32,000 bases of DNA from Candidatus Altimarinota bacterium. Lineage in GTDB: Bacteria; Patescibacteriota; Gracilibacteria; UBA1369. Below are positions 2,753 to 10,192 of the stretch, piece by piece. Position numbers and translations under genes: made by a program. The DNA is taken from NCBI GenBank assembly GCA_041659405.1, contig JBAZYK010000005.1, positions 31,796-63,795 on the forward strand, read 5' to 3'. The notes under the pieces are model-generated. The model worked only from the letters and a program-made list of their open reading frames with translations, was not told where the DNA came from and ran no database searches. How positions within the stretch are numbered: the first letter of the stretch is position 1; each line of letters starts with the position of its first letter.

Positions 2753-3388
2753 ATGACTAAAGACCAAATCGATAATTTTGCTTCAAAAATAGCTGCCAGT
2801 ATATATAATGGAACTTCCGTGTTCACGACTGATAAATGGATTGTTGAGTTTGAAACTATTTCAAATTATAAAATTCAGCGAAGTGTAATTGATGGCGTAG
2901 TTTTGGTAAGCTTGTATTTCGGCATTTATTTTATTCAACGTAAAGCGCAAACTTTTTTTGATGATCAAAAATTGAAAGTTTTCAATGAAGAGTTGAAAAG
3001 AGTTATTATATTTTATTTATCAACTGTATATTTTGAATCTGTTGATAAAGAACAAAATCCTGAAAAACATTTAAAACGTGTAAAAGATACTTTTGAAGCA
3101 TTATTTTCCCAAAGCATGGATGCATATTCTTCGTATACAGGTGGTAACATCACAATACTTTTTAAAGCTTTTGTGCAAAATGAATTTAATAGCTCCATAG
3201 TTAGCCCTAAAATTAAATTCACGAAAAATTCTTTTAAGAATCGCTTTTTGATTAACCTTGCAATGGTTATGGGTGGACCTAATGCATCATTTGCTAATGA
3301 TACGGTCTTAGATGAAAAGATCTTAGATAATTATGTGCAAAATATCGTTTCCACGCTTACGGAAATTGATTTTCATCCTGAGCTGTAA
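2753..3388 (+). CDS. Hypothetical protein (211 aa), first gene of the AT-rich island
   Basis: Track ORF. I recognise no motif. There is one hydrophobic stretch (VIDGVVLVSLYFGIYFI) and the gene is very AT-rich. Confidence 0.6.
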   Translation: MTKDQIDNFASKIAASIYNGTSVFTTDKWIVEFETISNYKIQRSVIDGVVLVSLYFGIYFIQRKAQTFFDDQKLKVFNEELKRVIIFYLSTVYFESVDKEQNPEKHLKRVKDTFEALFSQSMDAYSSYTGGNITILFKAFVQNEFNSSIVSPKIKFTKNSFKNRFLINLAMVMGGPNASFANDTVLDEKILDNYVQNIVSTLTEIDFHPEL

Positions 3389-3436
3389 GGTTTTTGCAAA
3401 TTCATCTTCCAGGATTTATGATCAGCTAAATTCGAC

Positions 3437-3502
3437 CATTTGGTCGACGGTTCGAACCCTAACCTTTTGATTTCAGGGTCAACTCGTCCCAATGCCCCAC
3501 CA
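3437..3502 (+). other. tRNA 3'-half-like fragment (possible att or tRNA remnant)
   Basis: ATTTGGTCGACGGTTCGAACCCT matches 17 of 23 positions of GATTGGTCGATGGTTCAATCCCA, the variable-loop and T-arm segment of the upstream tRNA. The segment ends ...GCCCCACCA (tRNA: GGCCCACCA). No cloverleaf can be drawn. Confidence 0.25.
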
Positions 3503-3570
3503 TGTTTTGGCTTACTTAAGCATTTTTTTAAGTATCGGGCCAAAAATTATCTTAGTTTTGAGAATTATTT

Positions 3571-4512
3571 ATGAAAGAATTTAAAATGGGTTGGCTTTTC
3601 GGCCTTAGCAATGGTGATGTGGATGAAATCGAGGTTGGATTGTTTAAAATCAGACGGATGTCTGGTACTGAAAGAGAATTTGTCATACGAAATTCTTTGG
3701 TTTTTTTTGGTAGCTCAGAGAAAATTGAGAACACTTTGGCTCGTTTTCCATATGTATTTGAAAAAGAAATAATTAAGAATAATTCTGAGAGTTTAGGTTC
3801 ATTAGACTCAATTGTGTTACTTCTCAATATTTTATCTTCTGGAGAAGTTAAAGCTCCATTTCAGTGGTCTGAAAATGTTAATGGACAAGGCAGTTCATGG
3901 AGCACAGAAATTTATTTATTATTTTTTCGTTCAATCAACTCTCATTTTAAGGAAATACCCGTCGAAACGATCATTGAACCTCTTAAAAAAATTGGCCATA
4001 TTTTGAGCGATAAACTAAATGTAAATGATTTATCTGAAAATATAGACCCATGGTTGAAAAATCGATTACTTGTTTCAAAAAACTATCCATTAAACATTAA
4101 TTTTGGGAATGATTTTGGCATCCCTGTTTTCATTACTCGTACTGTCGAAATATCCTCGGCATTGGAATTTCTTTTTCAAGAAAACACCAATGCCGACATT
4201 AGTTTTAGGCTTCCATTAAATGTTGCATGGCTTTTGGGTAATTCTACAGATGAAAGAAAACAAATTTTTGATGCTGTTAGGGATACTTATAATGTTAGAA
4301 GTAAAAATGTTCATGGTGATCCTAAAAACAAACCAGGCCATAATGAAAAATCTTTTAAAAATGTAGAATTATCAGATTATTGTTTGCGCAGAAGTATACT
4401 TATAAAAGCTACTAACAAGTTTGATAAAAAAACATGGATAGAATATTTCTCAAATGCACGTTTTGGTGCTGACTTAAGTGGAATGGATAGATTTGAATGG
4501 ATTTCAAAGTAA
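3571..4512 (+). CDS. HEPN-domain protein (putative RNase, Apea/MAE_28990-like C-terminal HEPN)
   Basis: 313 aa. The C-terminal helical region is SSALEFLF...FRLPLNVAWLLGNSTDERKQIFDAVRDTYNVRSKNVHGD. It contains an Rx4H motif (R243-H248, nt 4297-4314) in the typical Y..RS..VHG context of HEPN families. The N-terminal ~190 aa are unrecognised. Confidence 0.6.
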   Translation: MKEFKMGWLFGLSNGDVDEIEVGLFKIRRMSGTEREFVIRNSLVFFGSSEKIENTLARFPYVFEKEIIKNNSESLGSLDSIVLLLNILSSGEVKAPFQWSENVNGQGSSWSTEIYLLFFRSINSHFKEIPVETIIEPLKKIGHILSDKLNVNDLSENIDPWLKNRLLVSKNYPLNINFGNDFGIPVFITRTVEISSALEFLFQENTNADISFRLPLNVAWLLGNSTDERKQIFDAVRDTYNVRSKNVHGDPKNKPGHNEKSFKNVELSDYCLRRSILIKATNKFDKKTWIEYFSNARFGADLSGMDRFEWISK

Positions 4513-4568
4513 TTTTTACGTTTATATCACTAAATAAGCGGAAGATGATAAAAAATATTGATGTGATT

Positions 4569-4803
4569 ATTAATATTTTAACAAATACCTATGGAAATTA
4601 AGGATAGTAATGGCGTGGTGCTGCAGACTGGGGACAGCGTTCAGATAATTAAGGACCTCAAAGTTGGCGGATCTTCGATGGTGCTGAAAAGAGGCGACGT
4701 GGTCAAAAACATCAAAATAGTTGAGGACGAAGAAGAGGTGGAATGCCGCATAGGCAAGGCCACAATCATGCTAAAGCCGGAATTCCTAAAGAAAAAGGGT
4801 TAG
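4569..4803 (+). repeat. Direct repeat copy 1 (235 bp; covers the whole PhnA-C-domain gene plus 22 nt of leader)
   Basis: Hand alignment to 9958-10192 (offset 5389) shows 6 mismatches in 235 nt. Identity starts at ATTAATATTTTAACAAATACCTATG and stops exactly at the stop codon. Confidence 0.9.
4591..4803 (+). CDS. PhnA/YjdM C-terminal-domain protein (70 aa), copy 1
   Basis: KDSNG..L..GDSV..IKDLKVGGSS..LKRG..VKNI..V.....ECRIGKA.IMLKPEFLKK matches the C-terminal domain of E. coli PhnA/YjdM from memory. The N-terminal zinc ribbon is absent. Confidence 0.75.
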   Translation: MEIKDSNGVVLQTGDSVQIIKDLKVGGSSMVLKRGDVVKNIKIVEDEEEVECRIGKATIMLKPEFLKKKG

Positions 4804-4804
4804 A

Positions 4805-4834
4805 TTTACAGGATTGAATTTGTCTCCTTATAAT
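4805..4834 (+). promoter_or_regulatory. Candidate promoter for the abiEi-abiEii operon (TTTACA-18 nt-TATAAT)
   Basis: Hexamers at 4805-4810 and 4829-4834. GTATA(C/T)-containing repeats downstream (4841-4850, ~4856-4866, ~4910-4918) could be AbiEi operators. This is speculative. Confidence 0.3.
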
Positions 4835-4929
4835 TTTCACTATACTTTTTTTCTAAAATAGTATATTCTAAATGTAGAAAACACCATAAAGATGATAATT
4901 ACCACACTTACAGTATACTACAATAACTT

Positions 4930-5718
4930 ATGGCAAAGTCAAAAGAACAATTAGGTAAAATAATCCGTAAGGCAGGTGAGATATTTAGGGTGGCAGATGC
5001 TGCAGCAATACTTGAGGTATCTAATATTGAGGCAGCAAAAAGGCTGGCAAGGTGGGCGACACAGGGATGGCTCACTAGAATCCAGCGTGGATTGTATGCT
5101 CTAGTGCCTATTGAGGCTTCAACTGATAGAGCTCTTGAAGATGCCTGGATACTTGTGCCAGAACTTTTTGCTCCCTGCTACATTGGTGGTTGGTCTGCAG
5201 CAGAATACTGGGATTTTACTGAGCAACTTTTTAGAGATGTTTGCGTTATAACTGAGCGAGCTATACCTAAGAAAACACAACAGTTTCATGGTGTTCCTTT
5301 TGCTCTCACAAGAATTAATAATGCCTTATCCTTTGGCACGAAAATTATTTGGCTGAAAGAAAAGAAAATTTTGATTTCAGATCCTCATAAAACTATTATT
5401 GATATGCTTTATGACCCACAATTAGGCGGGGGGATTCAGCACATAATGGATTGCTTTAAAGAATACCTAAAAAGCTCGCATTTTAACCCTGAACAACTTG
5501 GTAACTATGCCGAAAAACTCAATAATGGGGCTGTATTTAAACGATTGGGATTTCTATCTGAGCATGAACTTGGTAAGGAGCATTCAATAACCAAGTTATG
5601 TAAATCTCGTTTAACAACAGGAAATGCATATCTAGATCCAAAACTTAAGGGTGGTGCCCTGATTACGAACTGGCGTCTTTTTGTACCTATAAATATCAAG
5701 GAAAATTATGATACCTAA
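4930..5718 (+). CDS. abiEi: AbiEi-family antitoxin / transcriptional regulator (type IV TA)
   Basis: 262 aa. The N-terminal wHTH-like segment is FRVADAAAILEVSNIEAAKRLARWATQGWLTRIQRGLYALVP. It is followed by GGWSAAEYWDFTEQ and ILISDPHKTIIDML, typical of AbiEi/COG5340. It overlaps the downstream NTase gene by 11 nt. Confidence 0.8.
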   Translation: MAKSKEQLGKIIRKAGEIFRVADAAAILEVSNIEAAKRLARWATQGWLTRIQRGLYALVPIEASTDRALEDAWILVPELFAPCYIGGWSAAEYWDFTEQLFRDVCVITERAIPKKTQQFHGVPFALTRINNALSFGTKIIWLKEKKILISDPHKTIIDMLYDPQLGGGIQHIMDCFKEYLKSSHFNPEQLGNYAEKLNNGAVFKRLGFLSEHELGKEHSITKLCKSRLTTGNAYLDPKLKGGALITNWRLFVPINIKENYDT

Positions 5719-7195
5719 GCGAGAAATTCTAGAAAGTGCAACAAACAACAGCCTCACACCACATGTAATTGAAAAGGATTACGTTTTGGGGTGGATACTT
5801 GCTGGTATTAATAATCATGCAATAATTGCTAATTCATGGATATTTAAAGGAGGAACATGCTTAAAAAAATGTTACTTCGATACCTACAGATTTTCTGAAG
5901 ATTTAGATTTTACATTACGCGATGAAAGCCACATAAATGCTGATTTTTTATTGAAGACTTTTAGTGACATAAGCAAGTGGATTTATGAATTTTCTGGCAT
6001 TGAAATACCACCAGATCGAATGATATTTGATGTTTATGAAAACCCACGCGGGAAAATGTCATGTCAGGGGCGCTTATTTTATAAAGGGCCTGCCACATCT
6101 CAATCAAAAAATGCCATGCCGCGCATTAAGCTTGATCTCTCCGTTGATGAAATTGTAGTTGCACCAACAATCATCAACTCAATCAGCCATGCATATAGCG
6201 ACTTACCTCAGGACGGATTTCATATTCAATGTTATTCCTATGAAGAAGTATTTGCTGAGAAGATACGTGCACTTGCAGAACGCACACGTCCGCGCGATCT
6301 GTATGATGTTATCAATTTTTATCGCCGTCCGGAGTCTGAAAAAAGAGCGATGCAGATAAAAGGAATCTTGCGGAAGAAATGTGAATTTAAAGGCATTGAA
6401 ATGCCAACATATTCCGCTTTGCAAAAACATAAAGATGAATGCCAAGGAGGATGGGTTGATCAATTGAACCATCAATTGCAGGCGTTACCTCCATTTGAAT
6501 CTTTCTGGAATGAATTACCGGATTTTTTTAATTGGCTAGAAAGCCCAACATCTCCTCTCGTTAGAATACATACAACAATACCAGTACAAGCAGGCACTGT
6601 TATTGATCAATCAGATATTGGTTTAATAAATTCTAGTGCAGCCGCTCCACAGTTCAACTTATTGGATAGAATTCGTTTTGCTGCAGCAAATTATCTCTGT
6701 GTGGAAATAATTTATCATCGTGAAGATGGAGCACAAAATACATATTTGATTGAGCCATATTCTCTCAGGCGTACATCAGATAACCATTTATTGCTTTATT
6801 CGTTAAAGCATAATACAGCAGACATCCGAGCTTTTAGAACTGACCGTATTATTAATGCTATAGCCACAACCACAACTTTCACCCCTAAATATCGTATAGA
6901 ATTTTTGCCGTCAGCTCCTTTAAATCCTGGTGGAGTAGTTTTAAGCTATGATCGCGATATTCTGGGTGTCTCAAAACGGAAGAAAAGTAGTAATTACTCT
7001 TTTGCAAAGCTACTTAAACCAAGCCGCTCACGTTCGTCCAGCTTTGGGTCTACGATAAAATATATTTATCAATGTCCTTTCTGCAGGAAGACTTTCCATA
7101 GAAGTAGTATGGATAGTAAATTGAATCCTCATAAAAATAAACAAGGTTGGCAATGTTCTGGAAAGACAGGAGTTTATATTAAAACAAAGTATTAG
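5708..7195 (+). CDS. abiEii: AbiEii/DUF1814 nucleotidyltransferase toxin with a C-terminal WYL-like domain and a Cys/His cluster
   Basis: The N-terminal ~280 aa carry the DUF1814 hallmarks IEKDYVLGW, FKGGTCLKK, RFSEDLDFT and EEVFAEKIRALAERTRPRDLYDV. Residues ~318-399 (nt ~6659-6904) read LDRIRFAAANYLCVEIIYHREDGAQNTYLIEPYSL...LLLYSL...IRAFRTDRIINAIATTTTF, which is a WYL-domain pattern. Residues 456-483 (nt ~7073-7156) read CPFC-x4-H-x10-H-x7-C. At 495 aa it is far longer than a typical DUF1814 protein. Confidence 0.8.
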   Translation: MIPKREILESATNNSLTPHVIEKDYVLGWILAGINNHAIIANSWIFKGGTCLKKCYFDTYRFSEDLDFTLRDESHINADFLLKTFSDISKWIYEFSGIEIPPDRMIFDVYENPRGKMSCQGRLFYKGPATSQSKNAMPRIKLDLSVDEIVVAPTIINSISHAYSDLPQDGFHIQCYSYEEVFAEKIRALAERTRPRDLYDVINFYRRPESEKRAMQIKGILRKKCEFKGIEMPTYSALQKHKDECQGGWVDQLNHQLQALPPFESFWNELPDFFNWLESPTSPLVRIHTTIPVQAGTVIDQSDIGLINSSAAAPQFNLLDRIRFAAANYLCVEIIYHREDGAQNTYLIEPYSLRRTSDNHLLLYSLKHNTADIRAFRTDRIINAIATTTTFTPKYRIEFLPSAPLNPGGVVLSYDRDILGVSKRKKSSNYSFAKLLKPSRSRSSSFGSTIKYIYQCPFCRKTFHRSSMDSKLNPHKNKQGWQCSGKTGVYIKTKY

Positions 7196-7274
7196 AGGCT
7201 GAATTCATTGTTACGATTGCAAAAATCCTATAAAAAGTGCATATTTTTATTGTTGATTTTGTCTTAAATTTTTT

Positions 7275-7895
7275 ATGAAAATAAAAATAGTAGCATTAGT
7301 TTCATTGCTTTTATTCACTGGATGCTCGTTTTCTAAGCAACCTGAGGCGTTTTTGGGTACAAAATTTGGAATGTCATCTGCAGAAGTAGAAAATGTTGTT
7401 GGTAAAAAACTACTAACTGGTGATGAGTATTTAGCTGACGCATCAAATCCAAAGTTTTTTGATTGGCTTGCTAAAAAGTATGGAGCGATTGCAATAAATA
7501 ATGTCCCGCTAGACAAGGAATATGCTGATAGATCGAAGGATTTTTTTATGTCTAGGATAATGCTTTATGACTTTCCGGCAGGAACTGATTTTAATTTTTT
7601 GGACGATAAGTTGAATAATGTTTCTGTCAATTTTGACGTAATGTTTGGGAATGCAGATGACCTACTTGGTAAAATTAAAGAAAGTCTTGAGAAAAATTAT
7701 AAATTTATTGTAAAAGAGGACAGCAAAGATGTGCCTGGAGCTTACACTTTAAAATATCAAAAAGACGATGTTAATGTTGATTTATGGATTAATGCAGTCG
7801 GACAAAATAAATATGTCAATTTAGATATTCATTACCTGCCTTTTAATAAGGCTTATGATGAAGAACTTAAAAAACGAGAGCAGAAAGCTTTATAA
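7275..7895 (+). CDS. Hypothetical lipoprotein
   Basis: MKIKIVALVSLLLFTGCS is a signal peptide with lipobox LFTG|C. The rest is unrecognised. Confidence 0.65.
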   Translation: MKIKIVALVSLLLFTGCSFSKQPEAFLGTKFGMSSAEVENVVGKKLLTGDEYLADASNPKFFDWLAKKYGAIAINNVPLDKEYADRSKDFFMSRIMLYDFPAGTDFNFLDDKLNNVSVNFDVMFGNADDLLGKIKESLEKNYKFIVKEDSKDVPGAYTLKYQKDDVNVDLWINAVGQNKYVNLDIHYLPFNKAYDEELKKREQKAL

Positions 7896-7935
7896 TGAAA
7901 TTTGATTCAACGAAAAGTTCTACAATAGCAGTATC

Positions 7936-8964
7936 TTAGGATAGCTTATTTAACAAATCTTCGGCAAAAGTATTCAAATTTCCGTCATTTGTATCTTCAA
8001 AAATATCGACTAACTTTTTATCAAATTGCGCAACCCTAGCTTCCCATATTGCTTTAGTCTCTAATTCTTTTTTCACTCCGGAATCATCTTGTGAATAACA
8101 TAATTGATTTTTGATTTTCTTCATATTTCCAACTATAACCAAACGCAGATGATAATTTTTCACTGCATCCAAAATAACATCATTAATGTGCTTATCCCTA
8201 AAACTATATCCGATAACCACTAATGTTGCTCCATCTCTACATAATACCTCTCTAAATAGCCACAAATAGAAAGCGAGCAATGGTTCTTTTTCCAAATCTC
8301 TAGGCTTATTCTTTCCAAAAATCATTCCATCAGAACCGTCAGCAGATAACCAGCCGTATGAGCCATGCAATTTTATATAATTTAAGTCATTCAAATCACG
8401 ATAATCTCCAACGTGGCCTTCGGCAGCAGAAACGCGACCTTTAAGTTTCTCAATCTCTGATAAATTGGGAAGCTGTACAAAATCTTTTCTCTCTAAAACC
8501 TGCTTTTTATTTAACTTTGCTGCTTCAGCAATAGGTATACCATAGGCTTTCATCCCACTACGACTCTCGTGTAATAGATCCTGATTCAGTGTAAAGAAAA
8601 ACCCTTTTTGGCTCCCCCTGCCTATAATTCGTTGTATCAAAGTCCTTCCGACTTTACTGTATGTTCCACCTGCCTTATTAAAATCACTTTTTAATTCTTT
8701 ATCTAAAGCTTTATAAGCATCAATAACTAGCTCTCTTGCAATGGTTTTATCCTTCGGATTTATATCGTTTGATGCGTCTATTTCTGAATAGATGCCTTCA
8801 TAATCAAGATCGTCAGAGTTACTAATAATTCCTCGCGCAATATCTGACAAAGAATTTATCCTCGAATTATTAAAAATCTTTTCATACATGTCACTAGCCA
8901 AAAAGCCACCATAATTGGCAGTGTAACCAGCACCAGTAAGTAAGATATTTTTCGAATAATCCAT
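7936..8964 (-). CDS. Stand-alone SIR2-like (SIR2_2 family) protein, putative NADase-type defence effector
   Basis: 342 aa with ILLTGAGYTANYGG (GAG nucleotide-binding start), FFFTLNQDLLHE (the TTNYD.L.E equivalent), YIKLHGSYGW (catalytic His motif) and LVVIGYSFRDKHIN. I recognise no fused sensor domain. Confidence 0.7.
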   Translation of the reverse strand: MDYSKNILLTGAGYTANYGGFLASDMYEKIFNNSRINSLSDIARGIISNSDDLDYEGIYSEIDASNDINPKDKTIARELVIDAYKALDKELKSDFNKAGGTYSKVGRTLIQRIIGRGSQKGFFFTLNQDLLHESRSGMKAYGIPIAEAAKLNKKQVLERKDFVQLPNLSEIEKLKGRVSAAEGHVGDYRDLNDLNYIKLHGSYGWLSADGSDGMIFGKNKPRDLEKEPLLAFYLWLFREVLCRDGATLVVIGYSFRDKHINDVILDAVKNYHLRLVIVGNMKKIKNQLCYSQDDSGVKKELETKAIWEARVAQFDKKLVDIFEDTNDGNLNTFAEDLLNKLS

Positions 8965-9246
8965 GATCGTTTATATAAATGTGTGTATGTGGATAAGTTA
9001 TCATATTGCAAGGGTAGGGACAAATTGCCACCCTGTTGAGTTGTCCGCCTATTTCGGACGACTGAATCAGGCGGAGAAAAATGGCAGAAAGGTTTAAAAC
9101 TGAGGATATTCAGCTTTGCTATGTTAGTATTGATGATTTTATGAATTCAATGGAACGGCTGAACCAATGGTGATTTTGGATTAAATGTAATACTATAGGT
9201 GCTGTTCAGTTATTAACTATGTCTTATAAATTAATTAAAAGTATTT

Positions 9247-9912
9247 ATGCAATCACAGGCGTCTAAAATTCTTTTTTCCGTAATTCTTACTGCAGTTATC
9301 GTTGGGGGAGGTGTTTATTTTTGGCAGCATCAAGAAGCCGCTCAGATCACGACTCCAGTAGTAACTGTAAAAGATTCGGAACAACTTAATATAAAGCCAG
9401 TAACACAAGAATCCACTTCAACAGATCTTTTTGAATTAGCAAAAAACACAAAAGATGAGTTCACTTATCTTGTCTCAGCACCAAAATTAACTGGTGACTG
9501 GAAAATGACAATAAATAACAATTCTGGAGATTATGTCCTTCGTTTTTCTTTAAAATATAAATATTCTCCTTGGGGAGAGTTGCGCTATACTAAGGCCGAT
9601 TTAACTGCGACTGATGGAGCTCCTCCTGTAAATGGTCTCTCAGGTGTTGCTTCTTATAGTTTCTGTGCCGGTCAATACTATTGTGATGAAACTAATCATA
9701 AAGGAATGGGCTTTGATCTTACATTTTGGAATGCAAAATTTATTGGAAGAGCAGCAGATCCAAAATTTTATTTAAAAGATGGTGAAACTTTTCTTAAAGA
9801 AACGGACAAATATATAGTTACCTATAAGCCATTTACTGGCTCGCCTGCTAATCAACAGGTGAAAGTGAATCAAGAAGTCTCAGACCTTGTGAGTTCTTTC
9901 GAGATTTATTAG
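9247..9912 (+). CDS. Hypothetical membrane-anchored protein
   Basis: The N-terminal TM/signal anchor is ILFSVILTAVIVGGGVYFW. The rest is unrecognised. Confidence 0.6.
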   Translation: MQSQASKILFSVILTAVIVGGGVYFWQHQEAAQITTPVVTVKDSEQLNIKPVTQESTSTDLFELAKNTKDEFTYLVSAPKLTGDWKMTINNNSGDYVLRFSLKYKYSPWGELRYTKADLTATDGAPPVNGLSGVASYSFCAGQYYCDETNHKGMGFDLTFWNAKFIGRAADPKFYLKDGETFLKETDKYIVTYKPFTGSPANQQVKVNQEVSDLVSSFEIY

Positions 9913-9957
9913 CTTTTAATCCGGCCGCCAAGACCTCGCGAAAAAATCATAATTTAA

Positions 9958-10192
9958 ATTAATATTTTAACAAATACCTATGGAAATTAAGGATAGTAAT
10001 GGCGTGGTGCTGCAGACTGGGGACAGCGTTCAGGTAATTAAGGACCTCAAAGTTGGCGGATCTTCGATGGTGCTAAAAAGAGGCGACGTGGTCAAAAACA
10101 TCAAAATAGTTGAGGACGAAGAAGAGGTGGAATGCCGCATAGGCAAGGCCACAATCATGCTCAAACCAGAATTTCTAAAGAAAAAGGGTTAG
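9958..10192 (+). repeat. Direct repeat copy 2 (235 bp)
   Basis: See copy 1. The differences are one I/V codon change (A4637 vs G10026), one silent change, and four changes in the last 30 nt. Confidence 0.9.
9980..10192 (+). CDS. PhnA/YjdM C-terminal-domain protein (70 aa), copy 2
   Basis: 69 of 70 aa are identical to the 4591-4803 product. Confidence 0.75.
   Translation: MEIKDSNGVVLQTGDSVQVIKDLKVGGSSMVLKRGDVVKNIKIVEDEEEVECRIGKATIMLKPEFLKKKG

Follow-up and report, generated by a model that had tools for sequence, protein, structure and literature searches.

An AbiE module of a Candidatus Altimarinota bacterium in which the AbiEii toxin is extended by a WYL domain and a conserved CCHC tail

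We analyzed a 32,000-nucleotide (nt) stretch of DNA from a Candidatus Altimarinota bacterium (assembly GCA_041659405.1, contig JBAZYK010000005.1), hereafter the window, on which all unprefixed coordinates are given, and found that it encodes an AbiEi-AbiEii gene pair whose toxin has a C-terminal extension. The abiEi antitoxin gene (4930..5718, forward strand) encodes a protein of 262 amino acids (aa) with an N-terminal winged helix-turn-helix (wHTH) and a COG5340-type C-terminal domain; the Pfam family AbiEi_4 matched its residues 12-59 (E 1.6e-8), and the PADLOC AbiEi model PDLC02271 matched residues 1-256 (E 5.3e-108). The abiEii toxin gene (5708..7195, forward strand; 495 aa plus stop) follows in an unbroken reading frame, and the 3' end of abiEi overlaps its 5' end by exactly 11 nt. 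As expected of an AbiE locus, the toxin gene thus adjoins a co-oriented AbiEi gene with both the wHTH and the COG5340 domain. The toxin consists of four parts: a DUF1814/AbiEii nucleotidyltransferase (NTase), a WYL domain, a disordered basic linker and a Cys/His module of 46 aa. We regard it as practically certain that the locus is an intact two-gene AbiEi-AbiEii toxin-antitoxin, or abortive-infection, module with this architecture. An earlier reading of the locus, made without database searches (the sequence-only reading), had given the same open reading frame (ORF), 11-nt overlap and N-terminal AbiEii NTase, and all three were confirmed.

The NTase domain comprises residues 1-290 (5708..6577, forward strand), as defined by Pfam, invariant motifs, Foldseek and a structural model. 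PF08843 (AbiEii) matched residues 30-268 with an E-value of 2.9e-35 and 122.7 bits against a cut-off of 22.5, and at least 22 PADLOC AbiEii models matched the toxin; an NCBIfam search returned no specific model for it. The four motifs by which we recognized AbiE NTases (GG[ST]; [DE]x[DE]; hDh; K...R..RD..D) were all present, as K47-G48-G49-T50, E64-D65-L66-D67 with S63 directly before it, K141/D143 and K185...R194.R196-D197..D200, and each was invariant in 120 homologues. An AlphaFold2 model of the toxin built from these 120 homologues had a mean predicted local distance difference test score (pLDDT) of 85 and a predicted template modeling score (pTM) of 0.76, with values mostly above 90 for residues 1-290. 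The best Foldseek match of the NTase domain in the PDB was Mycobacterium tuberculosis MenT4 (6Y56; E 6.6e-6), and a profile comparison with MenT4 (E 8.4e-5) aligned the two proteins across the GG and S-x-D-x-D motifs, placing S63 on the Ser of the latter. The two proteins differ in that MenT4 has only 292-293 aa, no C-terminal extension and 16% identity to the toxin.

One of the closest known systems is the AbiEi-AbiEii pair of Streptococcus agalactiae (Dy et al. 2014; bioRxiv 10.64898/2026.01.19.700257). Its genes likewise overlap with the antitoxin first, its antitoxin has the same wHTH/COG5340 organization, and its toxin carries the same four NTase motifs. That toxin is a tRNA NTase with a preference for UTP and CTP, and AbiEi neutralizes it by binding to it and so inducing its auto-phosphorylation at T65 (bioRxiv 10.64898/2026.01.19.700257). 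A phospho-acceptor Ser or Thr lies beside the DxD motif in S. agalactiae AbiEii (T65) and in MenT3 (S78); both S. agalactiae AbiEii and the toxin studied here have a Ser or Thr directly before the motif, and S63 is, from its position in the sequence, the putative equivalent of T65. The similarity is at the level of the NTase family only: S. agalactiae AbiEii consists of the NTase only (33.3 kDa including the His tag; bioRxiv 10.64898/2026.01.19.700257), whereas the present toxin is about 200 aa longer, with the WYL domain, basic linker and Cys/His module making up the difference.

The WYL domain spans residues 314-401 (6647..6910, forward strand) and was modeled as one helix plus a five-stranded Sm-like barrel. 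PF13280 matched residues 318-383 (profile positions 2-67 of 70) at E 1e-6 with 29.0 bits, which exceeds the gathering cut-off of 21.8, and the isolated C-terminal half scored 31.0 bits; the PADLOC WYL model PDLC01457 also matched (E 1.3e-8). The pLDDT exceeded 90 for residues 320-400. After MenT4, the Foldseek matches of the toxin in the PDB were WYL proteins only, namely PafBC, DriD with and without single-stranded DNA (ssDNA), BrxR and CapW. Superpositions of the WYL domain gave root mean square deviations (rmsd) of 2.0-2.5 Å over 74-77 columns, with a probability of 1.0 for DriD, PafBC and BrxR; the match to 7tzv_A, for example, had an rmsd of 2.0 Å over 75 columns at the same probability. 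As judged from the model, the WYL domain is genuine and adopts the Sm-like β-barrel fold.

In DriD, residues Y168, R204, W206 and R207 touch the ssDNA and are kept in PafB and PafC (PMC9186387). The toxin residues Y336, R374, F376 and R377 fall in register with these four in a weak profile alignment (E 0.7), and they are retained in 120, 114, 118 and 117 of the 120 homologues, respectively. The WYL domains of DriD, PafBC and CapW bind ssDNA as an allosteric signal (PMC9186387, PMC11662680 and, in the part consulted, PMC11804915); CapW holds it in the same WYL pocket as DriD (PMC11662680), and the DriD domain also binds single-stranded RNA (ssRNA), less tightly than ssDNA (PMC9186387). DriD, PafBC, CapW and BrxR share the WYL fold with the toxin (rmsd ~2 Å over 75 columns), but they are wHTH-WYL-WCX transcription factors in which ssDNA alters DNA binding or the recruitment of RNA polymerase. 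In the toxin, by contrast, the WYL domain stands behind an enzyme and no WCX or dimer domain was identified, and it would have to act on catalysis or on neutralization. The domain was kept in all 120 best homologues, with a mean pairwise identity of 63% compared with 68% for the NTase.

The WYL domain is followed by a disordered linker at residues 402-449 (6911..7054, forward strand; pLDDT below 50 for residues 402-447), which is rich in Ser, Arg and Lys and has a net charge of +7. In the 95 homologues that carry the tail, the linker varies from 24 to 49 aa with a pairwise identity of 31% but stays basic throughout (net charge +3 to +14, mean +6.7). The C-terminal module, predicted to bind zinc, occupies residues 450-495 (7055..7192, forward strand). 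The only invariant potential zinc ligands are C456 (codon 7073-7075), C459 (7082-7084), H475 (7130-7132) and C483 (7154-7156), which were found in 95 of 95 tailed homologues and in 55 of 55 sequences from genome loci, across sequences that share only about 58% identity. F463 was also invariant in both sets, and K461, L472, K476, G480 and G485 were invariant or nearly so. The position of H464 is a Thr in 83 of the 95 tailed homologues; the ligand set is therefore C-x2-C-x15-H-x7-C (CCHC) and not C..C..H..H..C. The tail carries a positive net charge in all 95 (mean +8.1), and the family means are +3.1 for the WYL domain and -10.6 for the NTase core. The sequence-only reading had assigned a WYL-like domain to residues ~318-399, a basic S/R/K-rich linker and a zinc-type Cys/His cluster to this extension. 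The first is borne out by the Pfam score above the gathering cut-off and by the fold match, the lack of similarity named there as counter-evidence was not seen, and the linker was found as described; its account of the tail as C2HC or zinc-ribbon-like was about right, except that H464 does not belong to the ligands.

The tail was modeled as an all-β module with strands at residues 451-455, 462-465 and 489-494 and no helix, both within the full-length toxin (pLDDT ~95) and alone (87-89). A zinc ribbon would have two zinc knuckles on β-hairpins that form a three-stranded sheet; in the tail, the first knuckle lies between the first two strands, and the second ligand pair (H...C) does not form a knuckle. 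On this model, the tail is predicted to be zinc-ribbon-like. No Pfam family scored above its cut-off on the tail, with only sub-threshold matches to zf-C2H2 types, BED, Zn_ribbon_8 and PHD, and a fold search of the isolated tail against the PDB gave nothing significant (best E 0.54), the weak matches being zinc-ribbon modules of MCM, SIRT6 and ribosomal proteins. The tail has a C-x2-C-G-K-x-F knuckle followed by L-x2-H, which gave the sub-threshold profile matches to C2H2 fingers, but it differs from C2H2 fingers in its spacing and in the missing second His and helix. We considered a classical C2H2 finger, which has C-x2-4-C-x12-H-x3-5-H spacing and a β-β-α fold, and rejected it: the spacing is C-x2-C-x15-H-x7-C, the position of the second His is Gln or variable, and the models are all-β. 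The Pfam zf-C2H2 score was 14.2 bits against a cut-off of 25.2. Matches of the tail profile to C2H2 fingers in the PDB (Aart, ZBTB20) arose from the CxxCGKxF knuckle, with scores added up across tandem fingers, and the best single-domain E-value was 0.0011 (ZBTB20).

A search with the tail profile across 1.84 billion representatives gave 1,251 matches at E<=1e-3 and 295 at E<=1e-10. Among the best 150, 93 were plain fragments or full copies of the AbiEii-WYL toxin family, seven were long multi-finger proteins unlike the toxin, presumably C2H2 arrays, and the others were mostly fragments whose linkers had drifted or whose N-termini were junk or frameshifted; none of these 150 was a solid example of the module outside the AbiEii-WYL toxins. 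Two small proteins stood apart. In P0238 (140 aa), a wHTH-like N-terminus is followed by the final WYL strand, the linker and the CCHC tail, and P0249 (157 aa) lacks an NTase and contains two tandem, divergent tail-like C-x2-C...H...C units. Both may have arisen by deletion, or they may be rare cases in which the module is used independently.

A protein search against 5.8 billion clusters, from which 8,000 candidates were scored, yielded at least 7,932 relatives of the toxin. Nearly all of the best 120 have precomputed matches to both PF08843 and PF13280. These relatives bear the name "nucleotidyl transferase AbiEii/AbiGii toxin family protein" or [quoted passage not shown] and fall into two length classes, one of about 400 aa and one of about 480 aa that bears the same tail. 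In a scan of one genome per species, at least 583 loci were found, and the best 80 of these, on which the locus comparisons are based, come from Proteobacteria, Acidobacteriota, Nitrospirota, Bacteroidota, Planctomycetota, Gemmatimonadota, WOR-3, Latescibacteria and Elusimicrobia. In 79 of the 80 loci the gene immediately before the toxin gene encodes an AbiEi homologue, with the same length and alignment coverage beside tailed and tail-less toxins. There was no third conserved gene in the 80 loci, as no other cluster reached more than eight of them except antisense shadow ORFs. The recurrent neighbors are tyrosine integrases and type I restriction-modification HsdM methylases, each in eight loci (for example L005:6995-8146 and L016:7673-9292, with seven further loci each), which would fit modules that are carried on integrative elements and in defense islands. 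Four plasmids, from Rhizobium and Thiodictyon, carry the toxin module; none of the phage records examined does, and a phage collection gave no match to the extension.

The tail is present in 63 of the 80 loci and in about three quarters of family members, and a tblastn search of the tail-less loci in all frames found no split zinc module or other remnant of the tail. On a tree of the NTase and WYL regions of 120 proteins (FastTree only, midpoint root), tail presence changed 21 times, of which at least 17 changes are forced by supported branches, and the closest relative of the toxin, P0004 (78% identity), has no tail. From these sequences, the tail appears to have been lost or gained many times. 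We rejected the tail as a clade marker, as it was no more clustered than shuffled labels. Compensation by charge in tail-less forms was also rejected, since the difference in core charge was not significant (p = 0.09). In two loci (L057:5232-5402 and L077:5275-5445), in-frame stops or frame breaks lie within or just before the zinc module, and these tails are apparently decaying.

The fusion of WYL to DUF1814 is widespread, was catalogued in 2014 and is largely ordinary. Makarova et al. 2014 list, in the relevant passage, WYL fused to an "AbiGII-like nucleotidyltransferase (DUF1814)" (PMC4012209). The PADLOC AbiEii model PDLC02317 (396 positions) aligns end to end with residues 1-405 of the toxin (E 7e-172); because it spans the NTase and WYL domains, both already belong to one PADLOC subfamily model, and the toxin is a member of this AbiEii-WYL subfamily together with the homologues that match PF08843 and PF13280. 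The sequence-only reading had suggested that the architecture might be uncharacterized, unless the extension proved to be common and already annotated. For the WYL part this is largely the case, with PDLC02317, PF13280 on the homologues and the passage of PMC4012209 all describing it, and the claim of novelty does not stand there; experimentally it holds, in that our literature search turned up no experimental study of an AbiEii with a WYL domain. The tail is a different matter: PDLC02317 ends before the linker and zinc module, the passage of Makarova et al. is silent on the tail (PMC4012209), and we found a conserved CCHC module that matched no family and no description. Its novelty is modest.

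To explain the function of the whole protein, we propose the following. MenT toxins add nucleotides to tRNA 3' ends with a tRNA specificity that varies among them (bioRxiv 10.64898/2026.01.19.700257), and by analogy with MenT1, MenT3, MenT4 and S. agalactiae AbiEii, the free toxin would add nucleotides to tRNA 3' ends and halt translation. AbiEi would bind the toxin and induce an inhibitory auto-phosphorylation, probably at S63. Because the catalytic motifs and the invariant S63 are present, we infer the same core cycle. The extension would bind short single-stranded nucleic acid, with the strongly basic linker and the zinc module raising the affinity, and the bound nucleic acid would be a signal of infection or DNA damage that shifts the toxin from the neutralized to the active state. 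The toxin itself would thereby serve as the sensor, with a putative allosteric path from the WYL domain to the active site. We put the chances of this explanation as a whole (an acquired AbiE module with a tRNA-modifying core and an extension that gates it in response to nucleic acid) at about even, and those of the gating role of the extension, taken alone, somewhat below that.

Most likely, the extension would bind single-stranded nucleic acid, be it as a trigger or for the recruitment of substrate. Of its possible roles we favor that of a single-stranded nucleic-acid trigger because of the precedent of WYL domains and the retention of the DriD contact residues. Several points weigh against it. 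The sequence alignment of the toxin with DriD is weak (E 0.7), and the residue equivalences therefore rest on register and fold. Residues of the linker, dimer domain or WCX domain complete the ssDNA pocket of DriD and CapW (PMC9186387, PMC11662680), and no counterpart of these parts was identified in the toxin. The scattered distribution of the tail and the tail-less closest relative make the tail inessential for the core mechanism. In addition, S. agalactiae AbiE gave no protection in E. coli against 32 coliphages (bioRxiv 10.64898/2026.01.19.700257), and a defense role is therefore not guaranteed for every AbiE; our literature search found neither an experiment on a WYL-bearing AbiEii nor any mention of its zinc tail.

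Of the other roles considered for the extension, we rank substrate recruitment second and control at the protein level third. In the former, which we consider rather unlikely, the WYL barrel, basic linker and zinc module would bind the tRNA body or single-stranded 3' end and determine affinity or the choice of target, while the acidic NTase only catalyzes. This would suit the opposite charges of core (-10.6) and of linker and tail (+6.7 and +8.1) in the 95 tailed homologues, the ssRNA binding of the DriD WYL domain and the differing tRNA specificities of MenT toxins, and it agrees with the idea of substrate targeting in the sequence-only reading. However, MenT1, MenT3, MenT4 and S. agalactiae AbiEii modify tRNA unaided by any extension, tail-less family members persist in many lineages, and their core charge does not differ significantly from that of tailed members. 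Still less likely, in our view, is that the extension auto-inhibits the enzyme or binds a partner, with the tail on the NTase or AbiEi or with the WYL domain oligomerizing, and so tunes neutralization or stability without nucleic acid. The opposite charges of NTase and tail would allow this, as would the higher pLDDT of the tail in the full-length model and a pTM of 0.76 despite a disordered linker of 46 residues; yet these values may reflect either intramolecular docking or just the deeper alignment of the full model. AbiEi is also the same in length and coverage beside tailed and tail-less toxins, and the conserved surface residues of the WYL domain correspond to nucleic-acid contacts in solved WYL proteins. 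Finally, the repeated loss of the tail and the stops in the zinc-module region of two of the 80 loci could be read as signs that the extension is an evolutionary relic without present function in this gene, but none of the 120 best homologues lacks the WYL domain, which is conserved nearly as well as the enzyme, four tail residues are invariant at ~58% identity, and the reading frame here is intact; this we consider highly improbable.

A bolder version of the trigger hypothesis extends to the subfamily: AbiEii-WYL-zinc toxins would be single-polypeptide sensor-effectors in which ssDNA or ssRNA from phage replication, bound by the WYL domain and basic tail, directly frees or activates the tRNA-modifying NTase, and the CCHC module would be an undescribed, apparently family-confined, nucleic-acid-binding zinc domain. 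We consider this doubtful; if true, it would reveal what triggers a large class of AbiE systems, a question of long standing. The switching-on of AbiE and MenT toxins during infection is the point at issue, as bioRxiv 10.64898/2026.01.19.700257 shows the switching-off only, and the large subfamily of toxins with a WYL domain, which senses ssDNA in each regulator solved so far, offers a direct handle on AbiE activation. This opportunity belongs to the subfamily and not to this locus, which adds a clean example in a 1.5-Mb genome and the definition of the conserved CCHC tail.

Upstream of abiEi, a promoter-like site (TTTACA-18-TATAAT; 4805..4834, forward strand) lies just past a yjdM/PhnA-like gene and 96 nt ahead of abiEi. 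It is a consensus match only (11/12), and the region contains just as many such sites as expected from shuffled sequence. Two imperfect inverted repeats, of 19 nt at 79% and 29 nt at 72%, lie between this site and the start codon (4833..4920). As S. agalactiae AbiEi is described, in the part of PMC7319586 consulted, as binding inverted repeats in its own promoter, they are by analogy a candidate AbiEi operator; the region is AT-rich, and the repeats are therefore possibly due to chance.

The gene pair lies in a 5.2-kb cassette bordered by two direct repeats of 235 nt that are 97% identical (4569..4803 and 9958..10192, both forward strand), each of which contains a complete yjdM/PhnA-domain gene of 70 aa. 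The cassette contains abiEi, abiEii and three further ORFs but no integrase, and the repeats may be the scar of an integration event or a site of recombination through which the cassette can be lost. One of the further ORFs (7936-8964, reverse strand; 342 aa) resembles SIR2_2 below threshold (21.7 bits against a cut-off of 24.5) and is possibly a stand-alone SIR2-type defense gene; an unannotated ORF of 206 aa (7275-7895) is convergent with it. The guanine-cytosine (GC) content is 0.32-0.39 across window positions 3001-10000 compared with 0.41-0.44 on the right flank, which is consistent with a larger accessory island; the low-GC stretch also includes two ORFs without Pfam matches (2753-3388 and 3571-4512). 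A search of 30 related genomes (0.9-1.6 Mb) did not find the toxin gene. The low GC content, the direct repeats, this negative result and the integrase and HsdM neighbors at other loci are all consistent with horizontal acquisition of the module. The genome itself comprises 1.51 Mb in 21 contigs and is 98.5% complete. It contains three more AbiEii (PF08843) paralogues, at C4:125341-125856 (reverse strand), C1:19573-20235 (reverse strand) and C1:214229-214690 (forward strand), whose open frames of 246-288 aa are too short to hold a WYL domain; four AbiE-type toxins in all are thus encoded within 1.5 Mb.

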